Shown here: positions 3,078-56,934 of the stretch, piece by piece
How the letters are laid out: each line of letters begins with the position of its first letter
How positions within the stretch are numbered: the first letter of the stretch is position 1
DNA from: Clostridia bacterium
GTDB lineage: Bacteria > Bacteroidota > Bacteroidia > Bacteroidales > 4484-276
Direction: 5' to 3'
DNA: 64,000 bases
Assembly: GCA_009928785.1 (NCBI GenBank)
Contig: SABY01000002.1
Coordinates: 10,147 to 74,146, forward strand
The notes under the pieces: model-generated
Told to the model about the DNA's origin: nothing
The model's database searches: none
Seen by the model: only the letters and a program-made list of their open reading frames with translations
Made by a program: the position numbers and the translations under genes

Positions 3078-3130
3078 AAACAGGTGTAGCTCATCCTAAA
3101 CCAATAGCGCTTCTTGTTGTTACATACAAG

Positions 3131-3321
3131 TATTTCTAAATTCCAATTTCCAAATTCCAATTTCTAACTTCTAAATTCTAATCTCTAACTTCTAACTTCT
3201 AATCTCTAACTTCTAATTTCTAATCTCTAACTTCTAATCTCTAACTTCTAAATTCTAAATTCTAATCTCTAACATCTAACTTCTAACTTCTAACTTCTAA
3301 CCTCTATCCTCTTATTAATAT
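3131..3321. repeat. G-free tract containing about 20 tandem heptamers (TCTAANN), abutting the RND operon start codon
   Basis: No G on the + strand from 3131 to 3321. TCTAA recurs every 7 nt from 3163 to about 3306, preceded by TTCCAA(A)T variants. Confidence 0.9.
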
Positions 3322-13563: not shown

Positions 13564-13572
13564 ACTATATTG

Positions 13573-13668
13573 TCATCCACAAAAGTCAAGGTCTTTTGTG
13601 TATCGCTTTATTTTTTGCGAGGCTTGGAACATATCGTCCAATAGCAGCCGGGTATCACGTTTAGACAT
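13573..13668 (-). pseudogene. truncated HEPN (DUF86-type) toxin remnant, 31 codons
   Basis: The ATG overlaps the MNT stop (TATGTCTAA). Translation MSKRDTRLLLDDMFQASQKIKRYTKDLDFCG* resembles the N-terminus of DUF86 HEPN proteins. It stops 9 nt before the mtaB start, so the Rx4-6H region is absent. Confidence 0.55.
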
Positions 13669-13951
13669 AAATTAAGTCGGAATTGATAGTTGCTAAATAT
13701 TTTTCTTTAATTCCTCTTTTTGAAACTAAATCAACTTTAAGACCGATAATCTTTTCCAGATCATCGGCCAAATCAACGAACCTGATCCCTATTCTATCTG
13801 AAAACTCTATTAGAATATCCAAATCACTGGAGTCGTTTTGTGTTTTGCGTGTGTATGAACCAAAAATCGTCATTGATTTTATGGGATAGTCACTAAACAA
13901 TCTGTCTTTATGACTATTCAAAATGGTTTTTATTTCTGATAAAGTTTTCAT
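13661..13951 (-). CDS. nucleotidyltransferase-domain protein (MNT/MntA-type antitoxin)
   Basis: 96 aa with the minimal NTase motif FGSYTRKTQNDSSDLDILIEF. Confidence 0.85.
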   Translation of the reverse strand: MKTLSEIKTILNSHKDRLFSDYPIKSMTIFGSYTRKTQNDSSDLDILIEFSDRIGIRFVDLADDLEKIIGLKVDLVSKRGIKEKYLATINSDLIYV

Positions 13952-14013
13952 AATCCAAAAATATCAAAATTTAATCATCCATAAAAATGATTTTTAAAAC
14001 ATTAGCGCATTGC

Positions 14014-15372
14014 CTAATGCCCTTCGCTTAGCACAGCCACCGCCACGCGCTCGCCTTCTACCGAGAAGTCGGTGGCGCTGGTGATAACGATGTCGGTGAA
14101 CTTACCAATGAGTGTTTCTTCGGTGGCGGCAAAGCGGCAAACGATTTTTCCTTCGGTCAATGCCGAAAGAAATCCCGGTTTGCGGTCGTGGCCGGTCACC
14201 AGCACACGATAGCTTTTCCCGACCATATTTGTATTGTGCACCAGCGCATGCTTACGCAAATCGTTGCTCAGCTCGTGGTAGCGGCGGCGCTTGATGTCGG
14301 GCGCGATGTCGTCGGCCCACCGGGAGCTGGCCGCGCCGGGTCGGGGTGAATATTGCGCAATATACGCCATGTTGTATTTAAACTCCTCCATCATGTGGCG
14401 GGTATTTTCATGCTGCTCTTCGGTTTCGCCCGAAAAACCGGTGATGATGTCAGTAAAAATAGTGGCATCGGGAATCATCCGGTGGATCGAGTGAATGATC
14501 TGGCGGTATTTTTCGACCGTATGCTTGCGGTTCATGTGGATGAGCACTTTGTCGTCGCCGCTCTGTACGGGCAAATGAAACTGCCGCGCCAGGCAACGGT
14601 AGCGCGCCACCACTTCCACTACTTCGTCGGTCATGTCGCGCGGGTGTGGCGAGGTGAAGTAAACCCAAAATTCATGTCCCAGGTCCTCCCCCATCCTTCC
14701 CACAGCTTCGAGCAATTGCGGAAACGAAAGCTCCTCGCCTTTTTTATCCAGACCATACGAATTTACATTTTGCCCCAGCAAAGTAATGGATTTATAACCC
14801 TGCTCCACCAGTTGCTGCACTTCATGGATTATCTCGCCGGAAGGACGCGACACTTCACGTCCGCGGGTGTAGGGTACGGCGCAAAAGGTGCAAAATTTAT
14901 CACAGCCATTTTGTATGGGTACAAAAGCCTCGAAGTCGGAGCTGTAGTGGGGCGTGATGCGCCAAAATTCGTCGATGCTGTCGTTGGAAGGCATGCGTTT
15001 CAGATCACCAAATAGCGAGGCTGGCGTCACCACACCATAGTGGCGAATCATCTCCGGCAGCTTTTCCAGCTCGCTCATTCGGAAAACGATGTCGAAGAGT
15101 TTCAGGAATTTCTCCATGTCGGCGGGCAGAATACACCCGGAGATAAAAGTGATGAGGTTGCGGCGGCTCTTCCACTTGTTCCAGCGGGTGATGCGCGAAT
15201 AAACCTTGTCGATGGCCTTTTGGCGCACCGAGCAGGCCAATATCCCCACCAGGTTGGCTTCTTCTTCGTGGTCGGTCCACTGGTAGCCGGTTTGCGTTTC
15301 GATGATGGTGCGCACCCGTTCGCTGTCCGACATATTCATTTGGCATCCGAGGGTTATCAGATGATATTTCAT
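14014..15372 (-). CDS. miaB: radical-SAM methylthiotransferase, MiaB-like
   Basis: HLITLGCQMNMSDSE N-terminal cluster domain, CDKFCTFCAVPYTRG radical SAM motif and a C-terminal TRAM-like domain. The family is certain; the MiaB versus RimO assignment is tentative. Confidence 0.55.
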   Translation of the reverse strand: MKYHLITLGCQMNMSDSERVRTIIETQTGYQWTDHEEEANLVGILACSVRQKAIDKVYSRITRWNKWKSRRNLITFISGCILPADMEKFLKLFDIVFRMSELEKLPEMIRHYGVVTPASLFGDLKRMPSNDSIDEFWRITPHYSSDFEAFVPIQNGCDKFCTFCAVPYTRGREVSRPSGEIIHEVQQLVEQGYKSITLLGQNVNSYGLDKKGEELSFPQLLEAVGRMGEDLGHEFWVYFTSPHPRDMTDEVVEVVARYRCLARQFHLPVQSGDDKVLIHMNRKHTVEKYRQIIHSIHRMIPDATIFTDIITGFSGETEEQHENTRHMMEEFKYNMAYIAQYSPRPGAASSRWADDIAPDIKRRRYHELSNDLRKHALVHNTNMVGKSYRVLVTGHDRKPGFLSALTEGKIVCRFAATEETLIGKFTDIVITSATDFSVEGERVAVAVLSEGH

Positions 15373-16273: not shown

Positions 16274-16528
16274 GGCTCTGATATAAAATTTTGGAGCCAG
16301 GCTGTTCACTAACCCCGGCCTTTAGGCCGGGGGTCAAGGCATAAGTATTTCATTGGGCTTTAGCCCAAATTAATAGAATGTTATGTTGAGTTCATGGAAA
16401 GATATTAATGTAAAAGTATTGCGGGCTAAAGCCCGTCGGTTTCTGACAGTACTTTCTGACCCCGCCCTGAAGGGCGGGGTTATTGACATGTTGCAGATAA
16501 ACTACACACAATAAGTAATATCAGAGCC
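16274..16528 (+). mobile_element. MITE-like / structured repeat element, copy 2
   Basis: Perfect 11-bp terminal inverted repeat GGCTCTGATAT ... ATATCAGAGCC. Flanked by TTCGGCAT (16266-16273) and TTCGACAT (16529-16536). Shares the same internal hairpins as copy 1, plus an extra GGGCTTTAGCCC hairpin. Confidence 0.6.
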
Positions 16529-21009: not shown

Positions 21010-21786
21010 TTATCCAAAGATGCCTTGCATCACACCGCCATCCACGCTCAGGGTCTGGCCGGTGATGTAGCCCGACTGTGGAGAGAGCAGCCACGCAGCC
21101 AGCGAGGCAAATTCTTTGGGATCGCCCATACGGCCAACAGGGATGTGCTGGACGATCTGCTGCTGCGCCTGCTGTTCGCTCACTCCCGATGTTTCGCTAC
21201 GTTTTTTCACCACACGCTTTACGGCCTCGGTTGCGTGATAGCCCGGAGCCATAATATTTACGGTGATACCATCGGCAGCAACTTCCTGAGCCAGCGTTTT
21301 GGCATAACCCACCACCGCCAGACGCAGCGCATTGCTGAGCACCAGATTTTGGATGGGTTGCTTCACCGACACACTTTCGATGAAAACGATGCGCCCGTAG
21401 CCATTCTGACGCATTTGCGGCAACAGCCTGCTCACCAGTTCTATCTTCCATCGCGCTACCGACAGCCAGGCGTCGTCCCACTGTTGCATGGTGGTGTCGG
21501 TGGCAGCGGTAGGCGGCGGGCCGCCGGCATTGAGCATCAGCCCATCAATGTGACGGGAGGCTACCTTTTCTGCTATTTTATCGATGGTTGTACTTTGCGT
21601 AATGTCGCCGCTGATGGTTTCAACTTTTCCTGGAAATTCTTTAGCGAAAGCGACCAGTTTATCGGCATTGCGAGCTATGGCCAGCACGTGTGCCCCTTCG
21701 GCAAGCAGTGCGTGGGCAGTGGCGCCGCCAAAACCAGCGGTAGCGCCACCGACAATGAAAAATTTGTTTTCGAGATTCAGATTCAT
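21010..21786 (-). CDS. SDR-family oxidoreductase
   Basis: FFIVGGATAGFGGATA glycine motif, NAGG, and C-terminus YITGQTLSVDGG. The ATG at 21786 is preferred to the TTG at 21804. Confidence 0.85.
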   Translation of the reverse strand: MNLNLENKFFIVGGATAGFGGATAHALLAEGAHVLAIARNADKLVAFAKEFPGKVETISGDITQSTTIDKIAEKVASRHIDGLMLNAGGPPPTAATDTTMQQWDDAWLSVARWKIELVSRLLPQMRQNGYGRIVFIESVSVKQPIQNLVLSNALRLAVVGYAKTLAQEVAADGITVNIMAPGYHATEAVKRVVKKRSETSGVSEQQAQQQIVQHIPVGRMGDPKEFASLAAWLLSPQSGYITGQTLSVDGGVMQGIFG

Positions 21787-21802
21787 AACTATATTTATAA
21801 CC

Positions 21803-21938
21803 AATCAGTCCGAAGTTCAAGATTAGCAATTGCAAAAAAAGCGTTCAAAATGTTTTGATTATTATTAACAACTGTATGTGCAATTGAGAGTAGGATTGCA
21901 AAACTTGCTGTTCCTTCAGAAGATTTAAATTGTGCCCC
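21803..21938. repeat. 136-bp direct repeat, copy A (pairs with 27772-27907)
   Basis: Hand alignment at a constant offset of 5969 nt gives roughly 100 of 130 identical positions with no gaps until the last few bases. Lies 16 nt upstream of the SDR start. Confidence 0.8.
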
Positions 21939-22025
21939 AATGGCTTTTAAGGTAATCTTATCAAGCAAATAAAAAATGAAAACGCAGGAAAATCATATTC
22001 TTGTCTTTTTCTGAAATGAAATATT

Positions 22026-23318
22026 TTACCAACCTGTCGTATAATCATACCTGTAAATACGGATTGTAGCGCTTTTTCCGGTATTGACCGAATTGTACAT
22101 GATGGAACCATTAAGTTTTAAAAGTGAGTTGGTCGCTGTCGAAATTTCTGAGATGGGCATATCCTGTGGAATTTCAAACCTAAGCTCATGCTGGCCTTTG
22201 CCTTTATAAACCTCATTAAGTGGCACCTCAACTACAACACCGCTTTCTTTCCATTCCAAATTTACTTTGGTAACAGCCACCGGACTATCAAATTTTGAAA
22301 GCAGCGGAATTACACAAACTGCTGATGAAACCAGGTCGCCATTTACGTTACCGCCCTCAATGCGGATGTTTCCGCTAATGACGAGTTCGGCTTTGTTTTC
22401 GGCAACATCAAAATAAAATTCCTTTTCGGCTTTATTGTTGGCGATTGTATATGAAACCTTTATACTATTTCCGGGTTCGGCGTAACATTCGTCATAAAGA
22501 TAGCTTACCTCGCAAACAATTTCGCCCAATTTTCTGTCGCCAATCCTGGCGCAGTTCGAATTGATGACCGGCTTTTTGGCATATCGCACTGCCCTTTCGC
22601 CAATTTTAAGGCTGTAACGTACCAACCCTAATTCGCTGCCTGCATTGGCCACATGTACAGAAGCCAGCAACGCCTTGCTTTTTTCAATACCTGTCTCACA
22701 GGTAGCTTTTCGCTCATCAATAAAAATTCCCAGCAGTTTTCCAAGCTGGCTTTGCGATTGGTTGATTTCTTCGACCGAAGTAAAATCATCCAGCAAATCG
22801 AGGGCTTTGTTCATTTCGGCAGTTAATTGCTCATTTTTTGCGCGGAAATCGGCTACCAATTCTTCTAAATCAAAAGTAGTGAATGGGTATCTCACAAAAT
22901 ATTGATATTTAACTTCTTTGGTTTTTCGGTCGGTTAATTTTTCCCAATAAAAATCATCAACTTTTGCAGCCGAAATCCCCTGAAGATAATCGCGTTTCCC
23001 TGACTGCGTGGTAATAACCTCAGAATAACTTTGATAAAGCTGTGAAAACTTGTCGGCAGTAATTTCCTCACTTTTCGAAACCGAAGAGGCAGAAATATAA
23101 TCAGCCACCGAAGTTACAATCTGGGCTTTAACATTTACCAAAGCGTTAGCTTTTGCATCTTCGATGGTTAGCCCGTTTCCGATGCCAATAATCGAACCGC
23201 GCTCCATGCTCATTGTCCAGTCGGGTTTTTTACCGCTGTCTTCGACAACTTTAAATTGCGCCAGAACTACCGTCGAAAGACAAAGTAGAAACAGGGCGAA
23301 AAGTGATCTTTTTTTCAT
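22026..23318 (-). CDS. secreted/periplasmic hypothetical protein (430 aa), last gene of the five-gene operon
   Basis: Signal peptide MKKRSLFALFLLCLSTVVLAQ. The N-terminal region EDAKANALVNVKAQIVTSVADYI is faintly LPP20-like; no other motif recognised. Confidence 0.6.
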   Translation of the reverse strand: MKKRSLFALFLLCLSTVVLAQFKVVEDSGKKPDWTMSMERGSIIGIGNGLTIEDAKANALVNVKAQIVTSVADYISASSVSKSEEITADKFSQLYQSYSEVITTQSGKRDYLQGISAAKVDDFYWEKLTDRKTKEVKYQYFVRYPFTTFDLEELVADFRAKNEQLTAEMNKALDLLDDFTSVEEINQSQSQLGKLLGIFIDERKATCETGIEKSKALLASVHVANAGSELGLVRYSLKIGERAVRYAKKPVINSNCARIGDRKLGEIVCEVSYLYDECYAEPGNSIKVSYTIANNKAEKEFYFDVAENKAELVISGNIRIEGGNVNGDLVSSAVCVIPLLSKFDSPVAVTKVNLEWKESGVVVEVPLNEVYKGKGQHELRFEIPQDMPISEISTATNSLLKLNGSIMYNSVNTGKSATIRIYRYDYTTGW

Positions 23319-23327
23319 GGTGCGGAA

Positions 23328-24404
23328 TTAATTAGTTATTGGAAGGTTTTTGAATTTGAAGATGTTTTCTTTGATAAAGAATTTGATATACTTCACTTCC
23401 TTCACTTTTGGAAATTCACAAATAAGTTCTGTGTTTACATCGGGAATCAGGGTTGCTTCAATCCAATTGGAGCCTTCTTTTGAGGCAATCTTCATCAGGT
23501 CAATTTTCACCTCATCACCCTTTTCGTTGATGAGCATGGTTTGATATATCCGGTAAATTTTTAAGTCAACATCTTCTTCATTTTTGTTGATGAGTTCAAA
23601 ATACAGTATGGTTTTTACACCTACATTTTTGCCGTTTTTATATCTCAAATACAAATTATCGCCCAGATCAACAGCGTCAAGCGACGAGTAAACCGGGCCA
23701 TCGCCATCGGGCTTGTTACTTTCGGAAGTAACCGCGACTTTGGTTTCGGGCATGTTGGCGCCAATTATCGCAGCAGCTTCGTTGGCATTGTCGAAACACT
23801 CACGGCAAACCGGCGGAACAGAATTTAACAATGCCAGCGCATTGGTGTAATTTTTCTGTGCGGCAAGGCTGTTGGCTCTCGAAATCACGAGGTCGCATTG
23901 TGTGTTATAATATTCGATGATGGCTTCTTTGCCTTTTTCGAGCATCACTTTGTATTTCCCGCTGCGCGGATCAATTTGTTTAAATGCCGAGTTGTAGGCT
24001 GCCGTTTCGGTATTTCCGGCACCTTTGAGGGCTTGCGTCGCAGTGGCATAAACATTTCCGGTGTATCGGTCGGCTATATTTAAAACCAACTCCATGTTGT
24101 AGGTGTACAAAACTGGTGTTGTTGGCGTAACGTCGCTGCTGATAATCATCAGTTCGGGATTCATAATAAAAAGCGGGGCGTCATCCATGGCACTCAATCC
24201 GTTTAAGCCAATCATTTGTCGCATTTTTCCAAGTAACATTTCCTGAGCACCCTGTGGCATTTTCATCAATTCTTCGGGAATAACCGGAGCAATGGCAATT
24301 CTGGCGTTGTCATCACTTTTTCCTGAACTGTTTTGTGCATGAGCAAAGTTGAAAAGCATCAAAGCTATCAAAATGGCCGGCAAAATATTTTTTATCGTTT
24401 TCAT
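23328..24404 (-). CDS. secreted hypothetical protein (358 aa)
   Basis: Signal peptide ...LFNFAHAQ. ARIAIAPVIPEE is faintly CsgG/LpoB-like. Cys cluster QCDLV...PPVCRECF. 9 nt upstream of the next gene. Confidence 0.6.
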   Translation of the reverse strand: MKTIKNILPAILIALMLFNFAHAQNSSGKSDDNARIAIAPVIPEELMKMPQGAQEMLLGKMRQMIGLNGLSAMDDAPLFIMNPELMIISSDVTPTTPVLYTYNMELVLNIADRYTGNVYATATQALKGAGNTETAAYNSAFKQIDPRSGKYKVMLEKGKEAIIEYYNTQCDLVISRANSLAAQKNYTNALALLNSVPPVCRECFDNANEAAAIIGANMPETKVAVTSESNKPDGDGPVYSSLDAVDLGDNLYLRYKNGKNVGVKTILYFELINKNEEDVDLKIYRIYQTMLINEKGDEVKIDLMKIASKEGSNWIEATLIPDVNTELICEFPKVKEVKYIKFFIKENIFKFKNLPITN

Positions 24405-24422
24405 ACTTGTAATTTTTAAAAA

Positions 24423-25391
24423 TTATTTTTCACCAAGAATAAGCCAGGCTTCGCCCAGCCCGCGCTGATAAATTTTCGATTCGATATTAAAAGGTTCGGC
24501 AGCAAGGTACTTCGACAGGTTTGAAGCAAATCTCCGTGTATCCATAGCTGTTTCGCGGTTATTGTTTATAAAAGTCATCGGGATACGAACCTGCTCAAAT
24601 CGCATCATGCTTTCGGTGGCATCCACAGTCGAAAACCTCCCGGAAACGGTGTTTTCGACCATCCAGTTTTCGATGTGAAAACTCAGCATGTCGGTGGTTT
24701 CATTTACATCAAAATCCTGTTCGAGGTCAACATCGGCGTTATCCCAAACCCTTATTACAAGTTTAACTTCACGACCATTTTTAAACATATCGTCAAAAAA
24801 TGTCATCAACTGGCCATTAAAATCATCCATGTGGCTCAGAACGGCTTCTTCGAGCAATAGGTCAACAGAGGCTGATGAAGACGGCGCACCAGCACCTGCC
24901 ACCCCTGCAACTTGTTTGTTTGTGTATGCGTCTAACCCCTTCAGGGTAAAGGTGATGTAATAATTCGGGCCTTGCCGCTTTACGATGAAATCGAGGTCGA
25001 GGATAATATCGGCCTTGGCGGTTCTTTTCAAAATATCAATTGGGGTTTCGTCGATGGCAGCCCCTGAACTTTTGGATTGCAGCATCGAAATTTCGGCGCT
25101 TTCGCTCTCGATACTTTTAAGCGCTTGCTCTAAATCTTTTAACGGGAAACCTCTTTCGGCCATGATTGCACCCATTTTAATCATTACCAGGCGTAGTTCG
25201 TCACTTTGCTGCAAAGCCATTTTGTAATCGGGCAAAACCTGATCTCTTCCGTTGGCATTTACCGTCATGGTGTATCCATTTTGAACGCAGAAATTATCGC
25301 TTGGAACAACCATGATGATTGGTTTTTTGGCCTGACCAAACATCATTATTGCCACCAGGACAAATGCAATCGTAAATATAATTTTCTTCAT
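24423..25391 (-). CDS. secreted hypothetical protein (322 aa)
   Basis: Signal peptide MKKIIFTIAFVLVAIMMFGQA. No recognised domain; possibly a Bacteroidota DUF family, which I cannot verify. Confidence 0.6.
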   Translation of the reverse strand: MKKIIFTIAFVLVAIMMFGQAKKPIIMVVPSDNFCVQNGYTMTVNANGRDQVLPDYKMALQQSDELRLVMIKMGAIMAERGFPLKDLEQALKSIESESAEISMLQSKSSGAAIDETPIDILKRTAKADIILDLDFIVKRQGPNYYITFTLKGLDAYTNKQVAGVAGAGAPSSSASVDLLLEEAVLSHMDDFNGQLMTFFDDMFKNGREVKLVIRVWDNADVDLEQDFDVNETTDMLSFHIENWMVENTVSGRFSTVDATESMMRFEQVRIPMTFINNNRETAMDTRRFASNLSKYLAAEPFNIESKIYQRGLGEAWLILGEK

Positions 25392-25440
25392 ATTTTTTAT
25401 CTTTTAATAGAATAGAACGATTTATGAGTTTTTATCCTGC

Positions 25441-25950
25441 TTAAAATCCGGCATCCATTTTTTTGGCAATTCCCTTTTCTTCGAGGTATTTGCGCAATTG
25501 GTTATAATTTACTGATGCACTGAGTGCCACTTTGTAACCTTTATTCATTTTTACGCGGTCGGCTCCGCCGGGCATACCGTCGGTGGTGCTGTTTACAAAA
25601 CTCAGATACATTCCGCCGGCCTTAAAAAAGTCGTCGAAAAAATCCATGTTTGTTTCATAACCATCAATCGGAAGTATTGAAGGTGTTGGAGCAGCGCCGT
25701 TTCCGCCAGGAACGCCTCTGAAGATAACAGCAGCAACTGCATTTCTCTTGGCCTCGTAAAGAGCATCATCAGCCTTTTTTCCATAACCCCATATTTTTAC
25801 CAGCTTGGTACCATCCTGACCAACGCCAAGACACTGTATCTCATAATTAAATTTGCTATCGTACATAGCTTTGCGCTCTTTACGCGATTGAGCATTTACA
25901 CTTGTAAAGGCAAAAATTGCCAGAAATGCGATGAGTAGTGTTTTGTTCAT
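25441..25950 (-). CDS. small secreted hypothetical protein (169 aa)
   Basis: Signal peptide MNKTLLIAFLAIFAFTSVNAQ. DALYEAKRNAVAAVIF is a faintly LPP20-like helix. Confidence 0.6.
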   Translation of the reverse strand: MNKTLLIAFLAIFAFTSVNAQSRKERKAMYDSKFNYEIQCLGVGQDGTKLVKIWGYGKKADDALYEAKRNAVAAVIFRGVPGGNGAAPTPSILPIDGYETNMDFFDDFFKAGGMYLSFVNSTTDGMPGGADRVKMNKGYKVALSASVNYNQLRKYLEEKGIAKKMDAGF

Positions 25951-25969
25951 AATTTAGATTTTTATAATT

Positions 25970-27625
25970 TTAGAATTCAAGTCGTAAGCCAAACATCAGG
26001 CTCATGCCTGAGCGGTCGGTAAATTGATCGGTCCAGGTAAAATCTTCTGTTACTTTGTCGCCATCTTCTGTTTCGGTATCAACATTGCCAAAGGGAGCAT
26101 AAAAATTAAGATGGCCCATTATCGAAAGATTATGGGTAATATTTATACCTAAGATGCCTCCGCCTTTCATGTAGCTTGTGCTGATGTCTTTGTAATGATC
26201 AGTGCTTGTTGATTCGATTCCATAAGCTGCATAAGGTGTTAATTCGACAATTCTTGCCAAGCGGATTCCTTTTCCAAGTCCAAATGAATATCTTAAGAAA
26301 GTGAAATCATCTTCAGTAAAATAAGTGTCCTCGTACGTTTGGGCATCAAAACCAATATCAGCCATCAGATATAGTGAAGGAACATTTAAAAACATACCGG
26401 CCCTAAACCAAAGCTGGGCATCAAATCCGCCAATGCCGCCTACTTCATAGCCGGCGATCAGCGAAAGTCCGAAATCGTTGCGTTGCTGCATCACCATGCC
26501 CTGGCGCACTGTGCCGCCGTAAACCTGATAAAACTTGCTTTCGCCGCTTGCACCGGTGGCTACACCACGGTTATCGGTAATTTTTCCCGTGGCTCTTACG
26601 ACGGCTTTCCGGTTCTGATCGGCTGTTCCGGTTTTCTCATTCCACACATATTCGTAAACAAAATATCGTTGGTCGCATCTCAGACCCTCTTTTTTACCAA
26701 TTTTCGATCGGATAGGATGCGTCCCCGAAACGTTCATTTTAACACGGAAAGGTTCCAGGTCTTTGTCGATGTTGAATAACGCATCATCGTACATTTGTTT
26801 GACTGCTTCATCTAAAAGCTGGTCGGAAGTTTTAGGGTTTTTCGTGAGCGCATAAATCTCGGTACTCGTTGCCGACATTCCTTGTTTTCCGTAAAATGAG
26901 GATAATGAAAATGAAAGAGTATCGAAAGCTGCAATTTTTGCATCTTTAATATTGGCAGGGTCATCATCAAACGGCCATTGCTCGTAAAAGCGGCTCACAA
27001 CCTCACTGTCGAAATTGAGTTTGTACAGAAAAACATCAAAAGTCGAACTCCAGCCATGTGATGTTTTGTCGTCGCTGTAGATTAATTCTTTTGGTGAGAT
27101 TACAAGGACGTAGGTTTTATTCACCAGCTTTTCGCCTGCGTCAAATAATACTGCTTCGCCTCGTTTGGCTGCACCCGACATCATAACATCCTGGTCGGAA
27201 GCATTGTAAAGCCCGCATTGATGGATATAATCGAGATTAAACATCCCGTCGGGCTGCCTGCTAAACCATTTGGCAATCATTTTTCTACCGATACCTTCCT
27301 TATCGAGATACTTTTTCAGTTCAATTTTTTTTGCGTCATAGCTTAAGTCTTTAAAATTCTTATTTAGTTCGATGGAAATTTCGTTCAGGTTGTGATTGAA
27401 ATACTTGTCGGTGAAGGCAATTTTTTTGGCCGATAAAGCTGCTTTCTCGCTGTTGTTGTCGCCCGGAAAAGTCGTAAAAAACAAGGTAACTGATGGTCTT
27501 GAGTATTCACTTTCAGATTTTTGCGGGTTATCCTGGCCAAACGCATCCTTTGATGACATGCCGTAAGTAAGGAACAGAAAAACAATCCCCAAAACATAAT
27601 GTAATGATGTTTTCATAAAAAGCAT
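25970..27625 (-). CDS. signal-peptide protein with C-terminal outer-membrane beta-barrel (551 aa), first gene of the operon
   Basis: Has a signal peptide. The last ~170 aa show an alternating hydrophobic beta-strand pattern ending FGLRLEF (C-terminal Phe, the outer-membrane protein signature). Confidence 0.65.
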   Translation of the reverse strand: MLFMKTSLHYVLGIVFLFLTYGMSSKDAFGQDNPQKSESEYSRPSVTLFFTTFPGDNNSEKAALSAKKIAFTDKYFNHNLNEISIELNKNFKDLSYDAKKIELKKYLDKEGIGRKMIAKWFSRQPDGMFNLDYIHQCGLYNASDQDVMMSGAAKRGEAVLFDAGEKLVNKTYVLVISPKELIYSDDKTSHGWSSTFDVFLYKLNFDSEVVSRFYEQWPFDDDPANIKDAKIAAFDTLSFSLSSFYGKQGMSATSTEIYALTKNPKTSDQLLDEAVKQMYDDALFNIDKDLEPFRVKMNVSGTHPIRSKIGKKEGLRCDQRYFVYEYVWNEKTGTADQNRKAVVRATGKITDNRGVATGASGESKFYQVYGGTVRQGMVMQQRNDFGLSLIAGYEVGGIGGFDAQLWFRAGMFLNVPSLYLMADIGFDAQTYEDTYFTEDDFTFLRYSFGLGKGIRLARIVELTPYAAYGIESTSTDHYKDISTSYMKGGGILGINITHNLSIMGHLNFYAPFGNVDTETEDGDKVTEDFTWTDQFTDRSGMSLMFGLRLEF

Positions 27626-27771
27626 TTTAGTTAATATTTATCTTTTTTGATTATCAGGACCAAATGGTTTCGCTTAAAACAATGCAAAAACAGCATAGGC
27701 AAAATTAACTTTATTTTAACAGTTGAAAAGATTAAGCTAAAAAAAATGATTTAACATGATTTTTCGTAACT

Positions 27772-27907
27772 AATCCGTCTGAGGTTCAAGTATAGCAATG
27801 GAAGCAAAAGCATTCAAAATGTTTTGACCATTTTTTAACAATTGTATCTGTTATTGAAAGTAGGATTGAAAACCTTTCTGCGCTTTCAAAAGGTTTGAAT
27901 TGCCCGG
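27772..27907. repeat. 136-bp direct repeat, copy B (pairs with 21803-21938)
   Basis: Same alignment as copy A. Lies 146 nt upstream of the operon start at 27625. Confidence 0.8.
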
Positions 27908-28169
27908 ATAATTTTTGTTTTAGAAATATATATCAGCTTTCCAATGTCGGGTATTGTTGATTACAATCAGTTTCCCAACTGCCGGGTCATTTTCGTTGAG
28001 CACTAACAATCAGTGAAATTTTATTTCATTTCAGGACTGATTAGTTTCCTCTATTTTATTAATAAAAAAACAGGGGATGACGCACATAATTGGTATATTA
28101 TCAGCCCAGGTTTCCCTGATGCCTATGCGATCCCCTGTATTTTGTTTTACAACGAAATGATGATGGCGG

Positions 28170-28646
28170 TTATGCCTCGTCGTCCTCGTCTTCTTCTTCC
28201 AAATCCATCATCATACCCCAACTGATGGCTGTAAGCGCACCTTCGTCGAAATAGAAGTCGATGAGAGCATCGTCAAACGAAACACGTTTTTCGTTTTCGT
28301 ACTCTTCGTCTTCCATCATCTCGGTGTCCATGTCCACGTAGTCGTGGTCGTTCATCAGCTTGATGATTTCGGCCTCGTTGAGGTCGAAAAGTTTTTTGCC
28401 GAAGAGGGTAATGCCACGATTTTCGGTCTCGAACTGCGTGAGTACGGGTTCTTCGTCCACTTCAAAGAAAAGCGACAGTTCCATGTCGTCGTAATGATAG
28501 ATCATGCTATCACCCATGTCTTCGTCTTTGATTTCTTCTTTGTCGTCAGGCTCGCCCAATTGGGCAACGATTTGTTTGGGTGTACTACCAAACTCAAGCG
28601 CACCAAATCCCTCCAGTGGCTTAATCTCGAATGACATTTCTTTCAT
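28170..28646 (-). CDS. highly acidic hypothetical protein (158 aa)
   Basis: Long ORF with coding-like composition, D/E-rich, with tail DLEEEDEDDEA. No recognised domain. Confidence 0.5.
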   Translation of the reverse strand: MKEMSFEIKPLEGFGALEFGSTPKQIVAQLGEPDDKEEIKDEDMGDSMIYHYDDMELSLFFEVDEEPVLTQFETENRGITLFGKKLFDLNEAEIIKLMNDHDYVDMDTEMMEDEEYENEKRVSFDDALIDFYFDEGALTAISWGMMMDLEEEDEDDEA

Positions 28647-28669
28647 AATTTGTAATAGTTTTTAATGAA

Positions 28670-29482
28670 TTATTTTAATGGTGAATTTGGTTCGTGCAAA
28701 AAATGCCTGAAAACCATTTTGTTGAGAAAATGCGGTACAAATTTATTAAGATAAACGATTGCCTTGCCCTGGGCTGTGAGGATAATATTGTTTTTGCGTT
28801 TGTAAATGGCGCGTGCAATTTTATGGGCAACTGTGGTGGCGCTCATGAGTTTGTTTTCGTTGAGTGGCGATTCGCCTTGTCGGGAGCCATCGGCTGCCAA
28901 GGCCACATTCCGGATGTTGGAACTGGTAAAACCCGGACAGGCTATGAGAACATGTACGTTGGTGTGTAGGTTTTCGATGCGTATTACTTCCATCAGTCCC
29001 TGTATGGCGAATTTGGAGGCAGAGTAACCGGTGCGTCCCGGCAGCCCTTTGTAACCCGCCACCGACGATACTGCTACCAGCGAACCCTGCGAAGCTTGCA
29101 GATGTGGCAGTGCGTATTTGGAACAATAGGCTGTTCCCCAAAAGTTGACATCCATAACTTGCTTTAGCACGTCGATGTCCACATCCTGAAAAAGTGCGCG
29201 CATAGAAATACCCGCATTGTTGATAATCACGTCGATTTTTCCATACTTATCAATGGCAGCCTGTATTAGATTTTGGCAGTCGGTTTCGCGGCTCACGTCG
29301 GTAGCCACAGCAAGCATGTGTTGGCCTTTTTGGTGCAGTGATGTTTGCATTTGCTGAAGTTTGGCTGTATTGCGTGCGGCGGCTACCACGCGTGCACCCT
29401 GACCGGCAAATTCGATCACCAGCGCCTCCCCTATTCCTGAAGAGGCTCCCGTTATCACAACAACTTGGTCTTTAAAATTCAT
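28670..29482 (-). CDS. SDR-family oxidoreductase
   Basis: VVVITGASSGIGEAL, NNAGI and YSASKFA motifs; 270 aa. Confidence 0.9.
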   Translation of the reverse strand: MNFKDQVVVITGASSGIGEALVIEFAGQGARVVAAARNTAKLQQMQTSLHQKGQHMLAVATDVSRETDCQNLIQAAIDKYGKIDVIINNAGISMRALFQDVDIDVLKQVMDVNFWGTAYCSKYALPHLQASQGSLVAVSSVAGYKGLPGRTGYSASKFAIQGLMEVIRIENLHTNVHVLIACPGFTSSNIRNVALAADGSRQGESPLNENKLMSATTVAHKIARAIYKRKNNIILTAQGKAIVYLNKFVPHFLNKMVFRHFLHEPNSPLK

Positions 29483-29582
29483 GATTGCGAAAACAACGTT
29501 ACAAACTGCATCTAATTTTACCTAGTGAAAAACTATTATCAAAAAACACTTTATTTGCCTTCTTCGTCATTTGCCCGGCAAG

Positions 29583-29936
29583 ACTACCAATTACTACCAA
29601 TTACCACCAATTACCCCCAATTATCATCAATTACTACCAATTACCACCAATTACCCCCAATTATCATCAATTACTACCAATTACTACCAATTACTACCAA
29701 TTACTAAATTACCACCAATTACCACCAATTACCACCAATTACCATCAATTACCATCAATTACAACAAATTACTACCAATTACAACAAATTACCACCAATT
29801 ACCATCAATTACCATCAATTACAACAAATTACCACCAATTACAACAAATTACCACCAATTACTACCAATTACCACCAATTACCACCAATTACTACCAATT
29901 ACTACCAATTACTACCAATTACAAACCAACAACCCC
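29583..29936. repeat. G-free tract of about 35 tandem 10-bp units (CCAATTAC[CT]A and variants)
   Basis: No G on the + strand across 354 nt. AATT recurs every 10 bp, with one 3-bp phase slip near 29705. Confidence 0.95.
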
Positions 29937-29940
29937 GTGT

Positions 29941-32862
29941 CTAATTCCCGCCCAGGGTTTTGTCGGCTTGCTGCTGTGCGTCAGCTTTTATTTTGTCGGC
30001 CTGGCGACGGGCAGCATTCATAATATTATCTGAATTTTTCTGAGCTTCTTTCACCAGATTATCGGCGGTATCGTCGGCTTGGGCCAGCAGGCTTTTGATG
30101 GTAGCTTTGGCGGCAACCTCGGCAAGCGGTCCGTTCTTTTTGGCTTCAGCCATAAGTTTGTCGGCTTGTTTGCGGGCCTCTTCTTTGGCCTTTTCGGCAC
30201 TTTGGCGCGCGGTAGCCATCAGTGCGTCGGCTTGTTTCTGCGCATCAGCAATAACTTTTTGCGCCTGCTTGTCGGCATCGTCAATAATCTTTTGTGCCTT
30301 GGCTCTGGCTTCAACTTTGCCCTCTTCCAGTTTCTGACGCGCTTCCTGTTCGAGTTTTTCTTTTTGTCGCTGCAATTCTTCGAATGCTTTATTTTTCAAA
30401 TCATCCACCATCGATTTTCCGGAGCCATCGCCCGGAAAAAGTCTTACGACCGGGTCAGTTAGTGTTCCGCCAATGTTGGCCTTTACTGTAACAGTTTCGC
30501 CCAGGCTAAAGTTGGTTCCCACCTTGTTGGCTTCCTTCACCAGGTTGTCGAGGATGTCGTTGGCTGCACCGCCAAATTTGGCGCGCGGAATTGTCAGAAT
30601 CATGTCGTAGCTTATGGTTTCATCCAACGCTGTCCAGCCGCCGACGCTGGCGTTGATGTCGGCATATTTGATATCAAAAGGTTCTACAAGCAATTTCCCG
30701 TCGATAAATTCAAATGAAATATCTACCGGTCCCATCAGCAATCGCTTTAGGTCGGGCATTTTGAGCAGGTCGGCTAATTTGTTAAAGGTGTTTACATTTT
30801 GGATGGTGATGGTGGTAGTTTGCAGGCTTCCTTTTCCGTTGAGGCTGCTGTAAATGGGCATCATTTCTTTGTCGAGCAAAGTAGTCATGTTGAAGTTGGT
30901 GGTAAATCTGCCCTCTGTTTTTTCGGCTATGGGAGTAAACTTTTCGATGGTGCCAAAGCTTTTGTAAGCCGACTGGATGTCGATGTCAGCAATGCGCATG
31001 TCGAGCTGAGCTTGTGGCCGTGCGGGGTTTTTCGCATCGTACTTTCCTGACAGGTTTGCCGTCCCCTCCAAAACGCCCATGTTGAGATTGTCGAGCGTGA
31101 TGGCTTGATTGGCCACTACCATCTTTCCGTTAACATTCGTCAGTTCCAAATTATCATAAATCACTTTATCGAAATGTGTAGTAAGCGTGAAGTCGATATT
31201 GGCGGGAACCTCGATAACGCCCATCGAAGCGGTATCTGCCGTGGGCGGAGATTGTGCAGGATTAGCAGATTCAGTGGCCGGAGCAGAAGTATCGGCGGGC
31301 ATCAGATCGGTGATGTTAAGATACGCCGACTTAAGGTCGAGCTGTCCCAGGAGCGTTCCGTCGGAAAGGACGTAGGGCAAAAAGTTCTCGATGCGTCCGG
31401 TAGCCGAAAAATCGTTGCGGCCAATATTCATAGCAAAATTGACCAAATCGAGATAGGCCGGCGAAAAGTTGAGCTGTGCGCTGGTGATATGCACCGGCTC
31501 TGTGAGATATTCGGTTGGATATTTAAAATCCTTCATCAGCAGCGAACCGATGAATTTAAAATCATCATAACGTTCATTTTCGATAGCCGACATCGCGCCC
31601 TCAAAAGAAACATCGGCTGTGACGGTTCCGCTAAGCGATTCGGTTTCCTGGAGCGGATACACCTCGCCAATGCGCGACAAATCGGCTTCGCCTTCGATGG
31701 CTCCTTTTAGGTGCAGGTCGCTCATTGGATTTTTAATAAAAAGATTAGCTGAAATTGCGTTGCCAGCCATCACCAGGTCGAAACGGGAAACATCGACGGT
31801 AAGATTGTCGAAGTCGCCGCCGGGGAAGTTGATGCGCGTGTCGATATTTACATCGCGCACGGCCTGCGGCAGGTCTGGATATTGGAAGAAGCCATCCTTC
31901 ACTTCCAGATTGACAGCAAAAGCAGGATAATCCGTTTCGGTGTACATTCCTTTCACGTTGCCGTTGATAGCCAGGGTACCGGAGGTTTTCAAGCCGTCGA
32001 AATTGTTGCTGTAGATTGCCGGCACCATCGAAAGGAAGTTTTTGAATTCCGATTTTTGGGATGCAAAGGTCAGCATCAGGTTCATATCGCCATTATCCTG
32101 CATTCCCACTGAGCCATCAAAGCCAATAAACAATTGATTGAGGCGCAATTGGTTTTCCTTTAAAGTGTAGATGCTGTTGGCCAAATCGGCATCGATTCTG
32201 GCATCCAACACCGCCTCCACATTGCGAAGATATTTTACACCATCATAAATTACAGTTACATGTTCGATGCTTGTGTAGGTATTTAATGAAGTGAAATCGA
32301 GCGTAAAATCGCCGGACATTTTAAAATCGACGCCATCAAGCAGGGCATAGGTGGTAAGGCTTTCGTCGTTGTAAATGATGCGCCCTTTATTGATGGTCAC
32401 ATTTTGCAATTCGATGACGAAAGCCGCAGAAGGTTCTTCACCAGCAGGTTCGGGTGCAGGTTCAGAAGGTAGCGCTATGTCGTAGTTGGCGATTCCCTCT
32501 TTAGTTACCAGCACATTTATTAATGGTTCGTTGATGTGTACTTTGCGCAACTTATAGTTTTCGCCTTTGATTACGCTCATCAGGTCGAGTGTAAGATCAA
32601 ATTGAGGAATCCACGCCAGCGTATCGCCCTCGAAAGGCGCTTTATTAGCCACCGAGAGTCCTTCGAGACGGAAGTTGAAGTTGGGAAAACTTCTGAATAA
32701 CGATAGGCTAAAGTCGGTGAAATCCACCTGGGCATTCACATTTTTATTAATCTCCACTTTTACTTTTTCCACGATCTGGTCGCGGAAAAAATAAGGAATG
32801 GCCACCATTGCAAGGATTATCACTAAAAAAATGATTCCGATAATTTTAAGAAATAGTTTCAT
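29941..32862 (-). CDS. AsmA-family protein with N-terminal membrane anchor and C-terminal K/A/Q/D-rich coiled-coil tail
   Basis: N-terminal TM MKLFLKIIGIIFLVIILAMVAIPYFF. The long beta-rich body is typical of AsmA-like proteins. The tail has repeated ADKQA/AQKQAD-type motifs. Confidence 0.7.
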   Translation of the reverse strand: MKLFLKIIGIIFLVIILAMVAIPYFFRDQIVEKVKVEINKNVNAQVDFTDFSLSLFRSFPNFNFRLEGLSVANKAPFEGDTLAWIPQFDLTLDLMSVIKGENYKLRKVHINEPLINVLVTKEGIANYDIALPSEPAPEPAGEEPSAAFVIELQNVTINKGRIIYNDESLTTYALLDGVDFKMSGDFTLDFTSLNTYTSIEHVTVIYDGVKYLRNVEAVLDARIDADLANSIYTLKENQLRLNQLFIGFDGSVGMQDNGDMNLMLTFASQKSEFKNFLSMVPAIYSNNFDGLKTSGTLAINGNVKGMYTETDYPAFAVNLEVKDGFFQYPDLPQAVRDVNIDTRINFPGGDFDNLTVDVSRFDLVMAGNAISANLFIKNPMSDLHLKGAIEGEADLSRIGEVYPLQETESLSGTVTADVSFEGAMSAIENERYDDFKFIGSLLMKDFKYPTEYLTEPVHITSAQLNFSPAYLDLVNFAMNIGRNDFSATGRIENFLPYVLSDGTLLGQLDLKSAYLNITDLMPADTSAPATESANPAQSPPTADTASMGVIEVPANIDFTLTTHFDKVIYDNLELTNVNGKMVVANQAITLDNLNMGVLEGTANLSGKYDAKNPARPQAQLDMRIADIDIQSAYKSFGTIEKFTPIAEKTEGRFTTNFNMTTLLDKEMMPIYSSLNGKGSLQTTTITIQNVNTFNKLADLLKMPDLKRLLMGPVDISFEFIDGKLLVEPFDIKYADINASVGGWTALDETISYDMILTIPRAKFGGAANDILDNLVKEANKVGTNFSLGETVTVKANIGGTLTDPVVRLFPGDGSGKSMVDDLKNKAFEELQRQKEKLEQEARQKLEEGKVEARAKAQKIIDDADKQAQKVIADAQKQADALMATARQSAEKAKEEARKQADKLMAEAKKNGPLAEVAAKATIKSLLAQADDTADNLVKEAQKNSDNIMNAARRQADKIKADAQQQADKTLGGN

Positions 32863-34213: not shown

Positions 34214-36781
34214 TTATGCGTCGTTAAGCAGTTTGAGTTTAGATTCGAGAACTTGCAGTTCTTCTTTGGCCTTATTGATTTTCTTTTCAAACTCATCTTT
34301 AAATAAGTTGGCCTTTTTGCTGTCGGCCAGGAAACCAATGTTGTTTTCCCACACGTGGATGTCGTCGCGCAGGGTGTTGATTTTTCCCTGTATGAAAATG
34401 CGCTCTCTGGAAAGTGTTCGCTGTGCATCGGGCGCCTCTTTTACTGACTCCATGCGGCTGCGGTAAGACGACAGCGAAATCTCGCGGTTGCTGATGTTGA
34501 GCTTGTCGAGTTGTTTGTTTACGATGTTTCTGAAAGCATTCTGCAACCGGTCTTTGTCTTTGAAAGGCACATGGCCAATGTCGGTCCACTGACGCTGGAA
34601 GTCTTTGAGTTTGTTGAGGTTTTCTGATTTATCTTCACCAAATTCGGTTTCCTCAAGCAGCTTTATAAGTTCCTCTTTGCGGCGCAGGTTTTCGCCTTCG
34701 TCCTCACGAATGCTGCCAAAATGTTTGGTTTTGGTGTTGAAAAAGGCGTCGCAGGCAGCGCGGAAACGTCTCCATATTTTGTCAGCGTTTTTGCGTGGTA
34801 CCGGGCCTATCTCTTTCCACTCTTTCTGCATGTCGATAAGCTCGCGGGTGGTTTGCTTCCAATCAGTGCTTTCGCTGAGCGCTTCGGCACGCACACAAAG
34901 ATCAAGTTTTTGATTGTAGTTGTTGATTTGCTGATCTTTGAGTTTTCCAAAATACTCTTTCTTTTCGCTGAAGAAGTTGTCCATGGCGGTGCGGAAGCGC
35001 TCCCATACTTCGTCGTTCTGCCGTTTGGCAGCGGGACCCATGGTTTTCCAAACTTTGAAAAGCTCATTGAATTGATGGGTTTTTTGCTGCCATTGTTTCA
35101 GCGATTCAACCTGACCTTCGAGTAACTGCTCGGCTTTTTCGCACAGCGCTACTTTTTGCTGGTAGTTGATGTCGTGCTGATCTTCCATCAGCTTATAATG
35201 ATCGCGCCGACGCTGATTGATTTTGTCGGTAGTAGATTTGAAACGTTCCCAGATTTCTTCGTTTTTGTCGGCTGGCACCGGCCCCACCTCTTTCCACTGT
35301 TCGTGGAGTCGTTGTAGTACTTTGAACGATCGGATGATGGACGATTCGAGCAAAAGCTCCTCGGCGCGTTCGCAAAGCTCAATCTTTTGTTCCAGGTTTT
35401 TCTTCAGGTCCAGGTCTTTTAGCTCTTTGTTGATCTTTACTTTATCAAAGAACTTTTCCACCAGGAAATGATAGTTCTGCCACAAATTGTTTACTTCGGC
35501 TTTGGGCACTATTCCCAGCGATTTCCATTCTTCCTGCAAGGCGCGGAAATCGTCGTAAGTCTTTTTGAGGGTTTCTTCAGAAGCGATAAGTTCTTTCAGC
35601 TCATCAAGTATCTGTTGCTTGCGCGCAAGGTTTTGATGTTTCTGTACCTCAAGCTGATCAAGATATACACTTCGTTTTTGTTTGTAAATGGCAAAAAGAC
35701 CATCAAATTTTTCCTGGAGCGCATCGTGCAACTGCTCAGGTTGTTTGTCGGCAACTTCCTCCCCACTCTCTTCACCCTCTTCATGTTCGGTGGTGGCAAG
35801 GCTTTGCTGAATTTGATCTTCTTTGTGGGCTTTTGTTTTTTTGATAAAAGCGACTTTTATCAAAGCTACCTTCGATTTTATCTCGTTCACGTCGTCGGCA
35901 GCCACCAGTTTTTCAAGTTGATCGATAAGCTCCTCGCGTGATAATTCTTCGTAGTTGGTAATCTCATCCTCGTCGTGATCCTCCTCTTCATCTTCTTCTT
36001 CGTCATGGGTTTTCTCCAGTACTTTGTCGGCAGTTTTTGCTGATGCAACTGCTGTTAGTTGCGCCCCTGGGTCAACCTCCGCTTCGGTTTCAGTTTCAGC
36101 AGCAACTTCCGGCTCTTTAGCAGCTTCGGCTTTGCTTTCGATCTCAGTTTCAGCAGCAACTTCCGGCTCTTTAGCAGCTTCGGTTTTGCTTTCTGGCTCT
36201 GTTTCAGCAGCAACTTCCGGCTCTTTGGCGGCTTCGGTTTTGCTTTCTGGCTCTGTTTCTGCAGCAACTTCCGGATCAGCAACAGCTTCGGGTTCCACGG
36301 GAGATTTTGTTTCGGCCTCAGCCAATGCTTCGATTGGTTTTTCTTCAACGATTTCCAAAACTGGTTCAGCGGCTGGTTCTTCCGTTTTCGCGGCGTCATC
36401 GGGAGTAAACTCAGTTGATGCATCCACCGTGGCAGGCTCAGTTTCGCCTTGCGGAGTAGCTGCCGTTTCGATAGCAGGCACTTCCCCGGCTACTCTTTTC
36501 TCTACTGCTGATGCAATCAATTCGACACCTCTTTCAGCTTGAACTTCAGGGGTAGCATCAATTTGCTTTTCATCGCTGATTCCGCTTTCAGCAGCCTCTT
36601 CATCCAGTGGTGGTTTTGCTTGCGCAACGGTGCTTTGGGTTTGTTCGTCGGTAGATTCCTGAACCTGATCTACTGTTTGATGGGTTTCTTGCTGTGGTTG
36701 GTCGGCCTGGAGCGTCTTCTCATCCTGCGTCCCGTTTTGGGATTCATCAGGAATTTGATTGGTTTGATCTTTTGTTTCCAT
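34214..36781 (-). CDS. DUF349 repeat protein with acidic repetitive N-terminus
   Basis: Multiple repeats of the W..F......F type (EEWKSLGIVPKAEVNNLWQNYHFLVEKFF, EVWERFRTAMDNFF, KIWRRFRAACDAFF). The N-terminal third is E/A/T/P-rich. Confidence 0.8.
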   Translation of the reverse strand: METKDQTNQIPDESQNGTQDEKTLQADQPQQETHQTVDQVQESTDEQTQSTVAQAKPPLDEEAAESGISDEKQIDATPEVQAERGVELIASAVEKRVAGEVPAIETAATPQGETEPATVDASTEFTPDDAAKTEEPAAEPVLEIVEEKPIEALAEAETKSPVEPEAVADPEVAAETEPESKTEAAKEPEVAAETEPESKTEAAKEPEVAAETEIESKAEAAKEPEVAAETETEAEVDPGAQLTAVASAKTADKVLEKTHDEEEDEEEDHDEDEITNYEELSREELIDQLEKLVAADDVNEIKSKVALIKVAFIKKTKAHKEDQIQQSLATTEHEEGEESGEEVADKQPEQLHDALQEKFDGLFAIYKQKRSVYLDQLEVQKHQNLARKQQILDELKELIASEETLKKTYDDFRALQEEWKSLGIVPKAEVNNLWQNYHFLVEKFFDKVKINKELKDLDLKKNLEQKIELCERAEELLLESSIIRSFKVLQRLHEQWKEVGPVPADKNEEIWERFKSTTDKINQRRRDHYKLMEDQHDINYQQKVALCEKAEQLLEGQVESLKQWQQKTHQFNELFKVWKTMGPAAKRQNDEVWERFRTAMDNFFSEKKEYFGKLKDQQINNYNQKLDLCVRAEALSESTDWKQTTRELIDMQKEWKEIGPVPRKNADKIWRRFRAACDAFFNTKTKHFGSIREDEGENLRRKEELIKLLEETEFGEDKSENLNKLKDFQRQWTDIGHVPFKDKDRLQNAFRNIVNKQLDKLNISNREISLSSYRSRMESVKEAPDAQRTLSRERIFIQGKINTLRDDIHVWENNIGFLADSKKANLFKDEFEKKINKAKEELQVLESKLKLLNDA
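36090..36275. repeat. in-frame 54-bp tandem repeats (about 3.4 copies) inside the DUF349 gene
   Basis: Encodes EVAAETEPESKTEAAKEP x3 plus a partial copy. The nucleotide units are nearly identical. Confidence 0.85.
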
Positions 36782-56650: not shown

Positions 56651-56934
56651 ACAGCGCTCCCCTGATACACTTCTTCGGCTTCGCTGGCACGCAACGCTTC
56701 TTCAAAAAGATCGAGCTGGTTGGGTGAGATAAACAACCGCGGCGCCGCTTGTTCGTCGGGAAGAGCCAGGTAGTCTTCGATGGCTCTTTTGATGAGCTTT
56801 ATCCGGGTCAATCCCTGCGCCTTGCAGTGTTTGTCGAGCGACTTTTTTTGCAACCGTCCGAGCTTAAAGGTAATGGTGCTGAATTTATGCGGAGCTTGTT
56901 TTTTCTGTTTTCGGCGCGCCATAGTTTTGATCAT
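56635..56934 (-). CDS. ribbon-helix-helix (CopG-like) small protein
   Basis: FSTITFKLGRLQKKSLDKHCKAQGLTRIKLIKRAIEDYL fits a beta-strand plus two-helix RHH pattern. Start at 56934 or 56922. Confidence 0.5.
   Translation of the reverse strand: MIKTMARRKQKKQAPHKFSTITFKLGRLQKKSLDKHCKAQGLTRIKLIKRAIEDYLALPDEQAAPRLFISPNQLDLFEEALRASEAEEVYQGSAVEKQE

Follow-up and report, generated by a model that had tools for sequence, protein, structure and literature searches.

We analyzed a 64,000-nt stretch of contig SABY01000002.1 (the window), from an uncultured Bacteroidota lineage, in which an earlier note had reported diverged direct repeats of 136 bp around a five-gene cassette. The two repeats are real, and we consider it likely that they represent the parts shared by both terminal arms of a non-autonomous transposon of the composite type, 6,252 bp long, with at least one arm resembling a MITE (miniature inverted-repeat transposable element). 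The repeats lie inside an insertion, and inverted ends and a short target duplication are its outermost features; the repeats are therefore read as the arms of a composite transposon and not as attachment (att) sites or a duplicated target. With this, an unexplained repeat pair becomes a delimited mobile element: its junctions are placed to the base pair, its empty site is known, and it has inverted ends and a duplicated target. The genes of the stretch are all on the minus strand, and we use left and right in that reading direction.

The insertion and its empty site

Contigs with an empty site were reached via homologues of the SDR protein encoded at 21010 to 21786, the gene just downstream of the cassette (here called SDR258). 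These contigs (L012 to L017) come from three related lineages, and the identity of their SDR258 proteins to that of the window was 98% in L012, 88% in L013, and 86% in L014 to L017. In all of them, the gene order was AsmA-like, SDR270, 158-aa protein, SDR258, flavodoxin, and Por_Secre_tail protein. The gene for the 158-aa protein adjoined SDR258 across a spacer of about 115 to 125 nt, and there was no cassette. BLAST comparison showed that the window was colinear with these relatives from ∼7.7 kb to 39 kb except for one block. The flanking matches stopped at 28049 and 21796 and overlapped by 8 nt in L014 (positions 9991 to 9998). Based on these flank ends and their overlap, the window carries an insertion of 6,252 bp (window positions 21797 to 28048, read on the minus strand; 40.8% G+C versus 46% for the window). 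All of L012 to L017 lacked these 6,252 bp and were colinear on both sides, so that the insertion is a presence/absence polymorphism with an intact empty site.

At the junctions, the window reads TTATTAATA and AAATAGAG, then the element from gaaactaatcagtcc to ggactgattggttat, and then AAATATAG and TTATG. The empty site in L014 and L017 reads TTATTAATAAAATAGAGTTATG, and AAATAGAG is present once in L014. The target-site duplication is thus 8 bp long, with its left copy (AAATAGAG on the minus strand) at 28049 to 28056, where the flanks overlap in L014, and its right copy (AAATATAG) at 21789 to 21796; the two copies are identical at 7 of 8 positions. The insertion point is an A/T-rich site whose duplication edge lies 2 nt upstream of the SDR258 start codon, and the element itself is 10 nt from this codon (the 8-bp duplication plus 2 nt). 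A target duplication of 8 bp is typical of several DDE transposase families, including IS256, ISL3, IS1595, IS66, and ISAs1.

Contigs from other sequencing runs bear on the assembly of this region. One contig from a different run (L011) was 100% identical to positions 22267 to 20792, covering copy A of the repeat and the right junction, and constitutes an independent assembly. Another from a third run (L020) was 99.8% identical to positions 27768 to 24233 and starts within 2 nt of the boundary between arm and cargo. A break at this place is as expected of a repeated or polymorphic arm, though it is only a hint; the other end of the contig is an ordinary break within a gene.

The base composition of the cassette was 41.9% G+C, compared to 55.5% for the SDR gene at 21010 to 21786, 46.8% for positions 28170 to 29482, and 46.0% for the whole window. 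The earlier note's impression that the cassette is in places somewhat lower in G+C than the flanking SDR genes was thus correct.

The host flanks of the window were 96 to 98% identical to those of L012, which lacks the insertion, but the two arms were only 79% identical to each other (∼21% diverged). Barring a precise loss of the element in three lineages, the insertion postdates the split from L012, the arms had already diverged by the time of the insertion, and the repeats were not created by the present insertion event.

The repeat pair

Local alignment of the two complete intergenic regions recovered a single block, in which copy A (21798 to 21932, minus strand) and copy B (27767 to 27902, minus strand) were identical in 107 of 136 columns (78.7%) with one 1-nt gap. 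The alignment score was 125, compared to a mean of 21.5 among 300 shuffles (standard deviation, 2.7; maximum, 35). The formal alignment that had been proposed in the earlier note thus bore out the 136-bp pair around the five genes, with identity far beyond that of shuffled sequence. The same pair was recovered by MAFFT (as long identity runs), by a repeat search (families D7 and D8), and by nhmmer. The offset between the copies was 5969 in the first half and 5970 past a 1-nt indel in the middle of the repeat (offsets of 5970 and 5969 for D7 and D8, respectively). Because of this indel the repeat is not strictly ungapped, and the constant offset of 5969 described previously, ungapped to the last few bases, holds for the first half only. 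The previous limits of 21803 and 27772 likewise located the pair but stopped short, as the repeat runs 5 nt further toward the SDR gene, to 21798 and 27767. The distances to the downstream genes agreed with those first given (16 and 146 nt): copy A ends 11 to 16 nt from the SDR start codon at 21786, and copy B ends about 141 to 147 nt from the start codon at 27625. The start of this first cassette gene that is conserved among homologues is at 27616.

The longest block common to both copies was 15 nt, and an nhmmer profile built from copies A and B found no third copy in the window. Neither alignment nor BLAST detected any similarity to the repeat in the empty-site spacers of L012 to L017.

Direct repeats that bracket a gene block of lower G+C content could be attL and attR, the traces of an integrative island that a site-specific recombinase had moved, or else products of homologous recombination. 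We regard this as very improbable. No part of the repeat is seen in the empty site, copy B is set back 141 nt from the left junction into the element, and the copies, only 79% identical, lack a long identical core. Moreover, the element encodes no integrase, its five products being signal-peptide proteins without recombinase domains, and the inverted ends together with the 8-bp duplication indicate transposition. The earlier note had offered a related explanation, namely, that the repeats are relics of att-like or duplicated junctions left when the cassette arrived upstream of the SDR gene. An insertion upstream of this gene did take place, given the relatives without the cassette, but the repeats are inside the inserted DNA, the empty site does not resemble them, and the true duplication is the 8 bp outside them. 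The note had also suggested looking for genomes with a single repeat copy and no cassette; cassette-free genomes exist, but they carry no copy of the repeat.

The position of the repeat in the 5′ region of two transcription units would also fit a structured RNA (a leader, a riboswitch, or a small RNA gene) or a small coding gene. We give this explanation very little weight, since the repeat is absent from the orthologous leaders. There was no relevant match to Rfam, either in the whole window at the gathering threshold or in positions 21700 to 28250 at E values up to 5. Predicted folds of both copies on both strands were no more stable than shuffled sequences (z, −0.9 to +0.5), and no open frame was shared by the two copies when they were read directly.

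Ends and arms of the element

The termini of the element were set from the empty site, independently of any comparison of the ends with each other. They proved to be 15-nt imperfect inverted repeats, GAAACTAATCAGTCC at the left (28034 to 28048, minus strand) and GGACTGATTGGTTAT at the right (21797 to 21811, minus strand), the latter identified by both the motif and the junction comparison. As inverted copies, the two ends agree at 12 of 15 positions, with a chance probability of ∼2e-5 for the base composition of the element. Allowing up to two mismatches, the core motif AACYAATCAGTCC occurs at three sites in the window, i.e., both termini and the inner end of copy B (27768 to 27780). The related motif ACTGATTRKT also occurs three times in the window, in each case within an arm, where 0.33 occurrences were expected.

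That the core motif marks the inner end of copy B as well as the termini of the element indicates that the leftmost 283 bp (27766 to 28048, minus strand) form a compact unit with its own inverted repeats. These were also found as inverted repeat I7 (27768 to 27779 versus 28035 to 28046; 11 of 12 positions identical), and the inner limit of the unit agrees with the limit of cargo homology at 27762 and with the start of contig L020 at 27768. Copy B is the inner (right-hand) half of this MITE-like left arm; the part unique to the left arm (about 27903 to 28033) holds further copies of the end motif, ACTGATTGT. The right arm is represented by copy A, which makes up the final 135 nt of the element, resembles a truncated version of the same unit, and stops at the terminus. 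Between the last cargo gene and copy A is a spacer of about 92 nt (21933 to 22025, minus strand) with no similarity to the left arm or to homologues of the cassette. The left-end motif was not found in this spacer, and the right arm therefore looks truncated. Thus, the left arm is a small non-coding unit with two inverted ends of its own, and the right arm has the right end only and 136 nt of homology.

We propose the following mechanism. The left arm (28048 to 27766) would be a complete 283-bp MITE-like unit and the right arm a truncated copy of a like unit, with copy A ending in the right terminal inverted repeat. The cell-envelope cassette, including a promoter region of its own, would lie between them. 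A transposase encoded elsewhere and acting in trans, presumably of the DDE type, would recognize the outermost inverted repeats, so that arms and cargo moved jointly to the A/T-rich site just after a terminator-like hairpin, with duplication of 8 bp of target. As a secondary feature, the shared 136-bp module may carry a putative outward promoter of the Bacteroidota type, TTTG-N20-TAnnCTTG.

Several observations weigh against this interpretation. The target duplication is imperfect (7/8). No transposase was found in the element: its five open reading frames encode proteins with signal peptides and no transposase domains. A left inverted repeat is missing from the right arm, which has only 136 nt in common with the left arm, so that descent from two MITE copies is one of two origins to consider. 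The end motif was found nowhere else in the window or in the loci that we fetched, and no further copies of the arms were found in the window, the GTDB representative genomes, the JGI metagenomes, IMG/VR, or the PLSDB plasmids.

The other possible origin is a single non-autonomous transposon with one pair of ends, within which the 136-bp segment next to one end, end motif included, was copied, so that copy B would be an internal duplicate of the right end. The lack of a left inverted repeat in the right arm, the direct orientation of the repeats, and the occurrence of only two copies, with no solo copies found in the window or in the GTDB and JGI scans, are in line with such a duplication. It is unlikely, however, for two reasons that concern copy B. 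Its end motif sits where homology to the repeat-free cassettes begins (27766 versus 27762), and together with the left end it makes up the compact 283-bp unit with 11/12 inverted repeats; both features suit an independent small element inserted beside the cargo. In addition, for the copies to be 21% diverged, the duplication would have to be old and to have persisted ever since. We therefore tentatively favor two arms derived from related small elements.

Our scans of sequence collections were limited to exact matches at 18 to 22 specified bases (22 in the GTDB and JGI scans). The GTDB and JGI scans did not return the window's own contig, and the host genome is thus not in those collections. 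The pattern TCAAAATGTTTTGA-N26-35-GTAGGATT matched once in the GTDB representatives and three times in JGI; none of these matches aligned to the repeat beyond the pattern itself, and we attributed them to chance. Neither this pattern nor the end-motif pattern matched in IMG/VR, and the left arm had no match in PLSDB by blastn. Among the fetched loci, nhmmer with the repeat profile gave one gapped match, in a contig carrying a cassette homologue (L001; E = 0.025), which we dismissed after reading the alignment. Exact-protein look-ups for other insertion sites or for sequence beyond the window yielded nothing but short contigs, either from the same strain or from a sister strain.

The cargo

The cargo (22026 to 27625, minus strand) consists of five genes encoding proteins of 551 (probably 548), 169, 322, 358, and 430 aa, which we characterized by domain, signal-peptide, and structure searches. 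All five had predicted N-terminal signal peptides. The only curated family among them was DUF6175 (the third protein); NCBIfam and PADLOC gave nothing, a sequence search of the PDB gave no informative match, and a relaxed Pfam search added only a sub-threshold LPP20-like match in the last protein. As modeled by AlphaFold (mean pLDDT, 86.9; pTM, 0.81), the first protein has a small outer-membrane beta-barrel at its C terminus, which matched OmpX, Ail, OmpA, and a Thermus outer-membrane protein. The basal-body protein FlgT was also among the top matches (E = 3.5e-6) but with a TM-score of only 0.18 and a root mean square deviation as high as 12.6 Å. The signal peptides and the barrel model therefore point to an outer-membrane/envelope module. 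By the libraries used (Pfam, NCBIfam, and PADLOC), the cargo is not a defense or resistance cassette. In this lineage at least, an envelope cassette of five genes (for an OmpX/OmpA-like barrel protein, a DUF6175 protein, and three further exported proteins) can thus be carried as the cargo of a transposon.

Homologues of the cassette, found via its first protein, sat in quite different neighborhoods in other genomes. The identical order of five genes was seen in L001, L002, L005, and L006 and in a P0004 contig (as listed, without its DNA); L003 and L004 end within the cassette. The nearest homologues, L001 and L002, had 87% nucleotide identity over exactly positions 27762 to 22025, that is, from 4 nt past copy B to the last stop codon. 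The repeat was absent from the cassette loci in L001 to L006, and no analogous bracketing repeats were found around the homologues in L001, L003, and L005. These three contigs also shared with the window the 137 nt upstream of the cassette, including a conserved TAATTTTG/TATTTTTG box at 27700 to 27707. The −7 consensus of Bacteroidota promoters is TAnnTTTG. In the window, 13 of 44 crude gene calls had this motif in the 150 nt upstream, about 4-fold more than the ∼3.4 expected. The cassette's own −7 box is thus TAATTTTG (27700 to 27707, minus strand), as identified by alignment with repeat-free homologues, the limits of homology, and the motif survey. From this shared upstream region with its −7 box, it appears that the cassette brought its own promoter region, and copy B would be an addition beside it.

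Downstream of the cassette in L001 (11472 to 16005) and L002 (7947 to 12134), we observed a GmrSD-like (DUF262/DUF1524-type) gene and an MmeI/Eco57I-like restriction-modification gene. They are set apart from the cassette by ∼1.5 kb that includes an ABC-2 membrane gene, and they place this copy of the cassette close to a defense-gene region.

Promoter-like motifs and the upstream region of SDR258

Both repeat copies contain the pattern TTTG-N20-TA(AT/TA)CTTG on the gene strand and account for two of only three such matches in the window. The pattern match in copy A (TTTG-N20-TAATCTTG; 21818 to 21849, minus strand) faces the SDR gene, with its −7 box ∼39 nt upstream of the SDR258 ATG, and that in copy B (TTTG-N20-TATACTTG; 27787 to 27818, minus strand) faces the cassette. 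The invariant blocks of the repeat fall on both boxes and on a palindrome, TCAAAA-TG-TTTTGA, overlapping the −33 element. Since the motif is present in both copies and faces the downstream units, a role of the repeat as a putative outward promoter is plausible. Two points weigh against such a role. The putative −7 box of the repeat has C at the fifth position where the consensus has T, and the cassette's own −7 box is better than that of copy B; copy B is therefore not needed for expression of the cassette. A scan with the sigma-70 consensus was uninformative for Bacteroidota.

In the insertion, SDR258 was separated from its native upstream sequence, and an outward promoter borne by the element would therefore matter. 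The putative promoter in copy A may now drive the SDR258 and flavodoxin genes, which the insertion parted from the operon upstream of them, although SDR258 transcripts are explained just as simply by read-through from the cassette. The locus is a natural test case of a mobile-element terminus that replaces the upstream region of a host gene, here parting SDR258 from a conserved terminator-like hairpin.

This hairpin of roughly 75 nt, followed by a run of seven T residues, is native and lies outside the element, before the insertion point (28063 to 28138, minus strand; −34 kcal/mol; z = −3.4). It was nearly invariant in the relatives, although their flanking genes were only 84 to 89% identical, and in the insertion-free genomes it ends ∼20 nt before the SDR258 start codon. 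The hairpin had no Rfam match. It could be a conserved terminator or attenuator, or a cis-regulatory RNA.

A different account of the repeats is that they form a shared regulatory module (a promoter with an operator, e.g., the palindrome) that would co-control the cassette and the SDR-flavodoxin genes, with a mobile origin being incidental. The retention of TTTG-N20-TAnnCTTG in both copies, facing both downstream units, is consistent with this account, as is the location of the longest invariant blocks at the −33 element/palindrome and the −7 region; furthermore, SDR258 has lost its native upstream context and so needs a new promoter. However, the module is absent upstream of the cassette orthologues in L001 to L006 and the SDR258 orthologues in L012 to L017, the cassette retains its conserved TAATTTTG box, and with two copies only, conservation is inseparable from common descent. 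We therefore consider co-control a possible but doubtful explanation. The earlier note's suggestion of a shared promoter or leader module fared similarly: its promoter part gains from the motif in both copies facing the downstream units, but it is not the reason for the existence of the repeat, as orthologous cassettes and SDR genes do without it; a promoter may at most be a secondary function of the arms.

Comparison with known mobile elements

MITE-flanked composite transposons are known, for instance, class 1 integrons between identical MITEs in Acinetobacter and other cargo mobilized by MITEs (PMC10969869). Like these, the element described here has transposase-free cargo between directly oriented copies of what appears to be a small element with terminal inverted repeats, a target duplication around the whole unit only, and presumed mobilization in trans. 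It differs in its arms, which are only 79% identical and of which the right one is cut down to 136 nt, and in that it carries a cell-envelope operon, not a resistance integron, in an uncultured Bacteroidota lineage. Also unlike these systems, no extra arm copies or cognate transposase were seen in the window and the collection scans. In the composite transposons Tn5 and Tn10, too, two related arms surround the cargo, the outer ends move the unit, and a target duplication of 8 to 9 bp surrounds the whole; their arms, however, are full insertion sequences with a transposase and are usually inverted, whereas the arms here are non-coding, 136 to 283 bp long, and in direct orientation.

Elements of the IS1380 family activate cfiA in Bacteroides fragilis. 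Promoters borne by MITEs have been documented, and elements with outward promoters include the Correia elements of Neisseria, MITEAba12, and BrickBuilt of Porphyromonas (PMC10969869). The resemblance is that a terminus with promoter-like boxes reads into a host gene, as copy A would ∼11 nt from the SDR258 start; the difference is that the promoter here is a predicted motif with one departure from TAnnTTTG. Interpreted in this way, the element is a MITE-armed composite transposon of a kind already known, here in an uncultured Bacteroidota lineage, and current concepts are unchanged, as both MITE-flanked cargo and element-borne promoters are familiar.

More speculatively, the arms might belong to a previously undescribed MITE/IS family of uncultured Bacteroidota, characterized by an 8-bp duplication, ends like GAAACTAATCAGTCC, and a right half that serves as a portable outward promoter, with paired copies capturing and moving entire operons, here the outer-membrane/envelope cassette with DUF6175. 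We offer this tentatively and think it somewhat unlikely. If it were true, each insertion would resupply a promoter to the host gene that it cuts off, and insertions would be non-polar by design.

Other repeats in the window

A second repeat pair (2320 to 2566 and 16286 to 16527) was 82 to 87% identical and contained several short G+C-rich hairpins, such as CCGGCCTTTAGGCCGG. In L013 and L014, a homologue of ∼122 nt was found elsewhere, between two radical-SAM genes and in the opposite orientation. This pair looks like a REP/BIME-like or small mobile intergenic element. The spacer separating the two radical-SAM (UPF0004) genes was ∼475 nt in the window (13561 to 14036) versus ∼113 nt in L013 (13457 to 13569); the L013 spacer contains the hairpin-cluster repeat. 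Here, too, the window differs from its relatives by a small indel or rearrangement.

Between the SDR270 and AsmA-like genes, a tandem array (29586 to 29922) consisted of ∼34 copies of a 10-nt unit, ACCAATTACC, with 86% matches. In this interval, about 29653 to 29866 did not align to L013 and about 29546 to 29941 did not align to L014, and the array therefore appears to be variable. Further tandem arrays were found at 3104 to 3341, 36029 to 36294, and 56264 to 56699, with periods of about 7/14 nt, 54 nt, and 56 to 57 nt, respectively.

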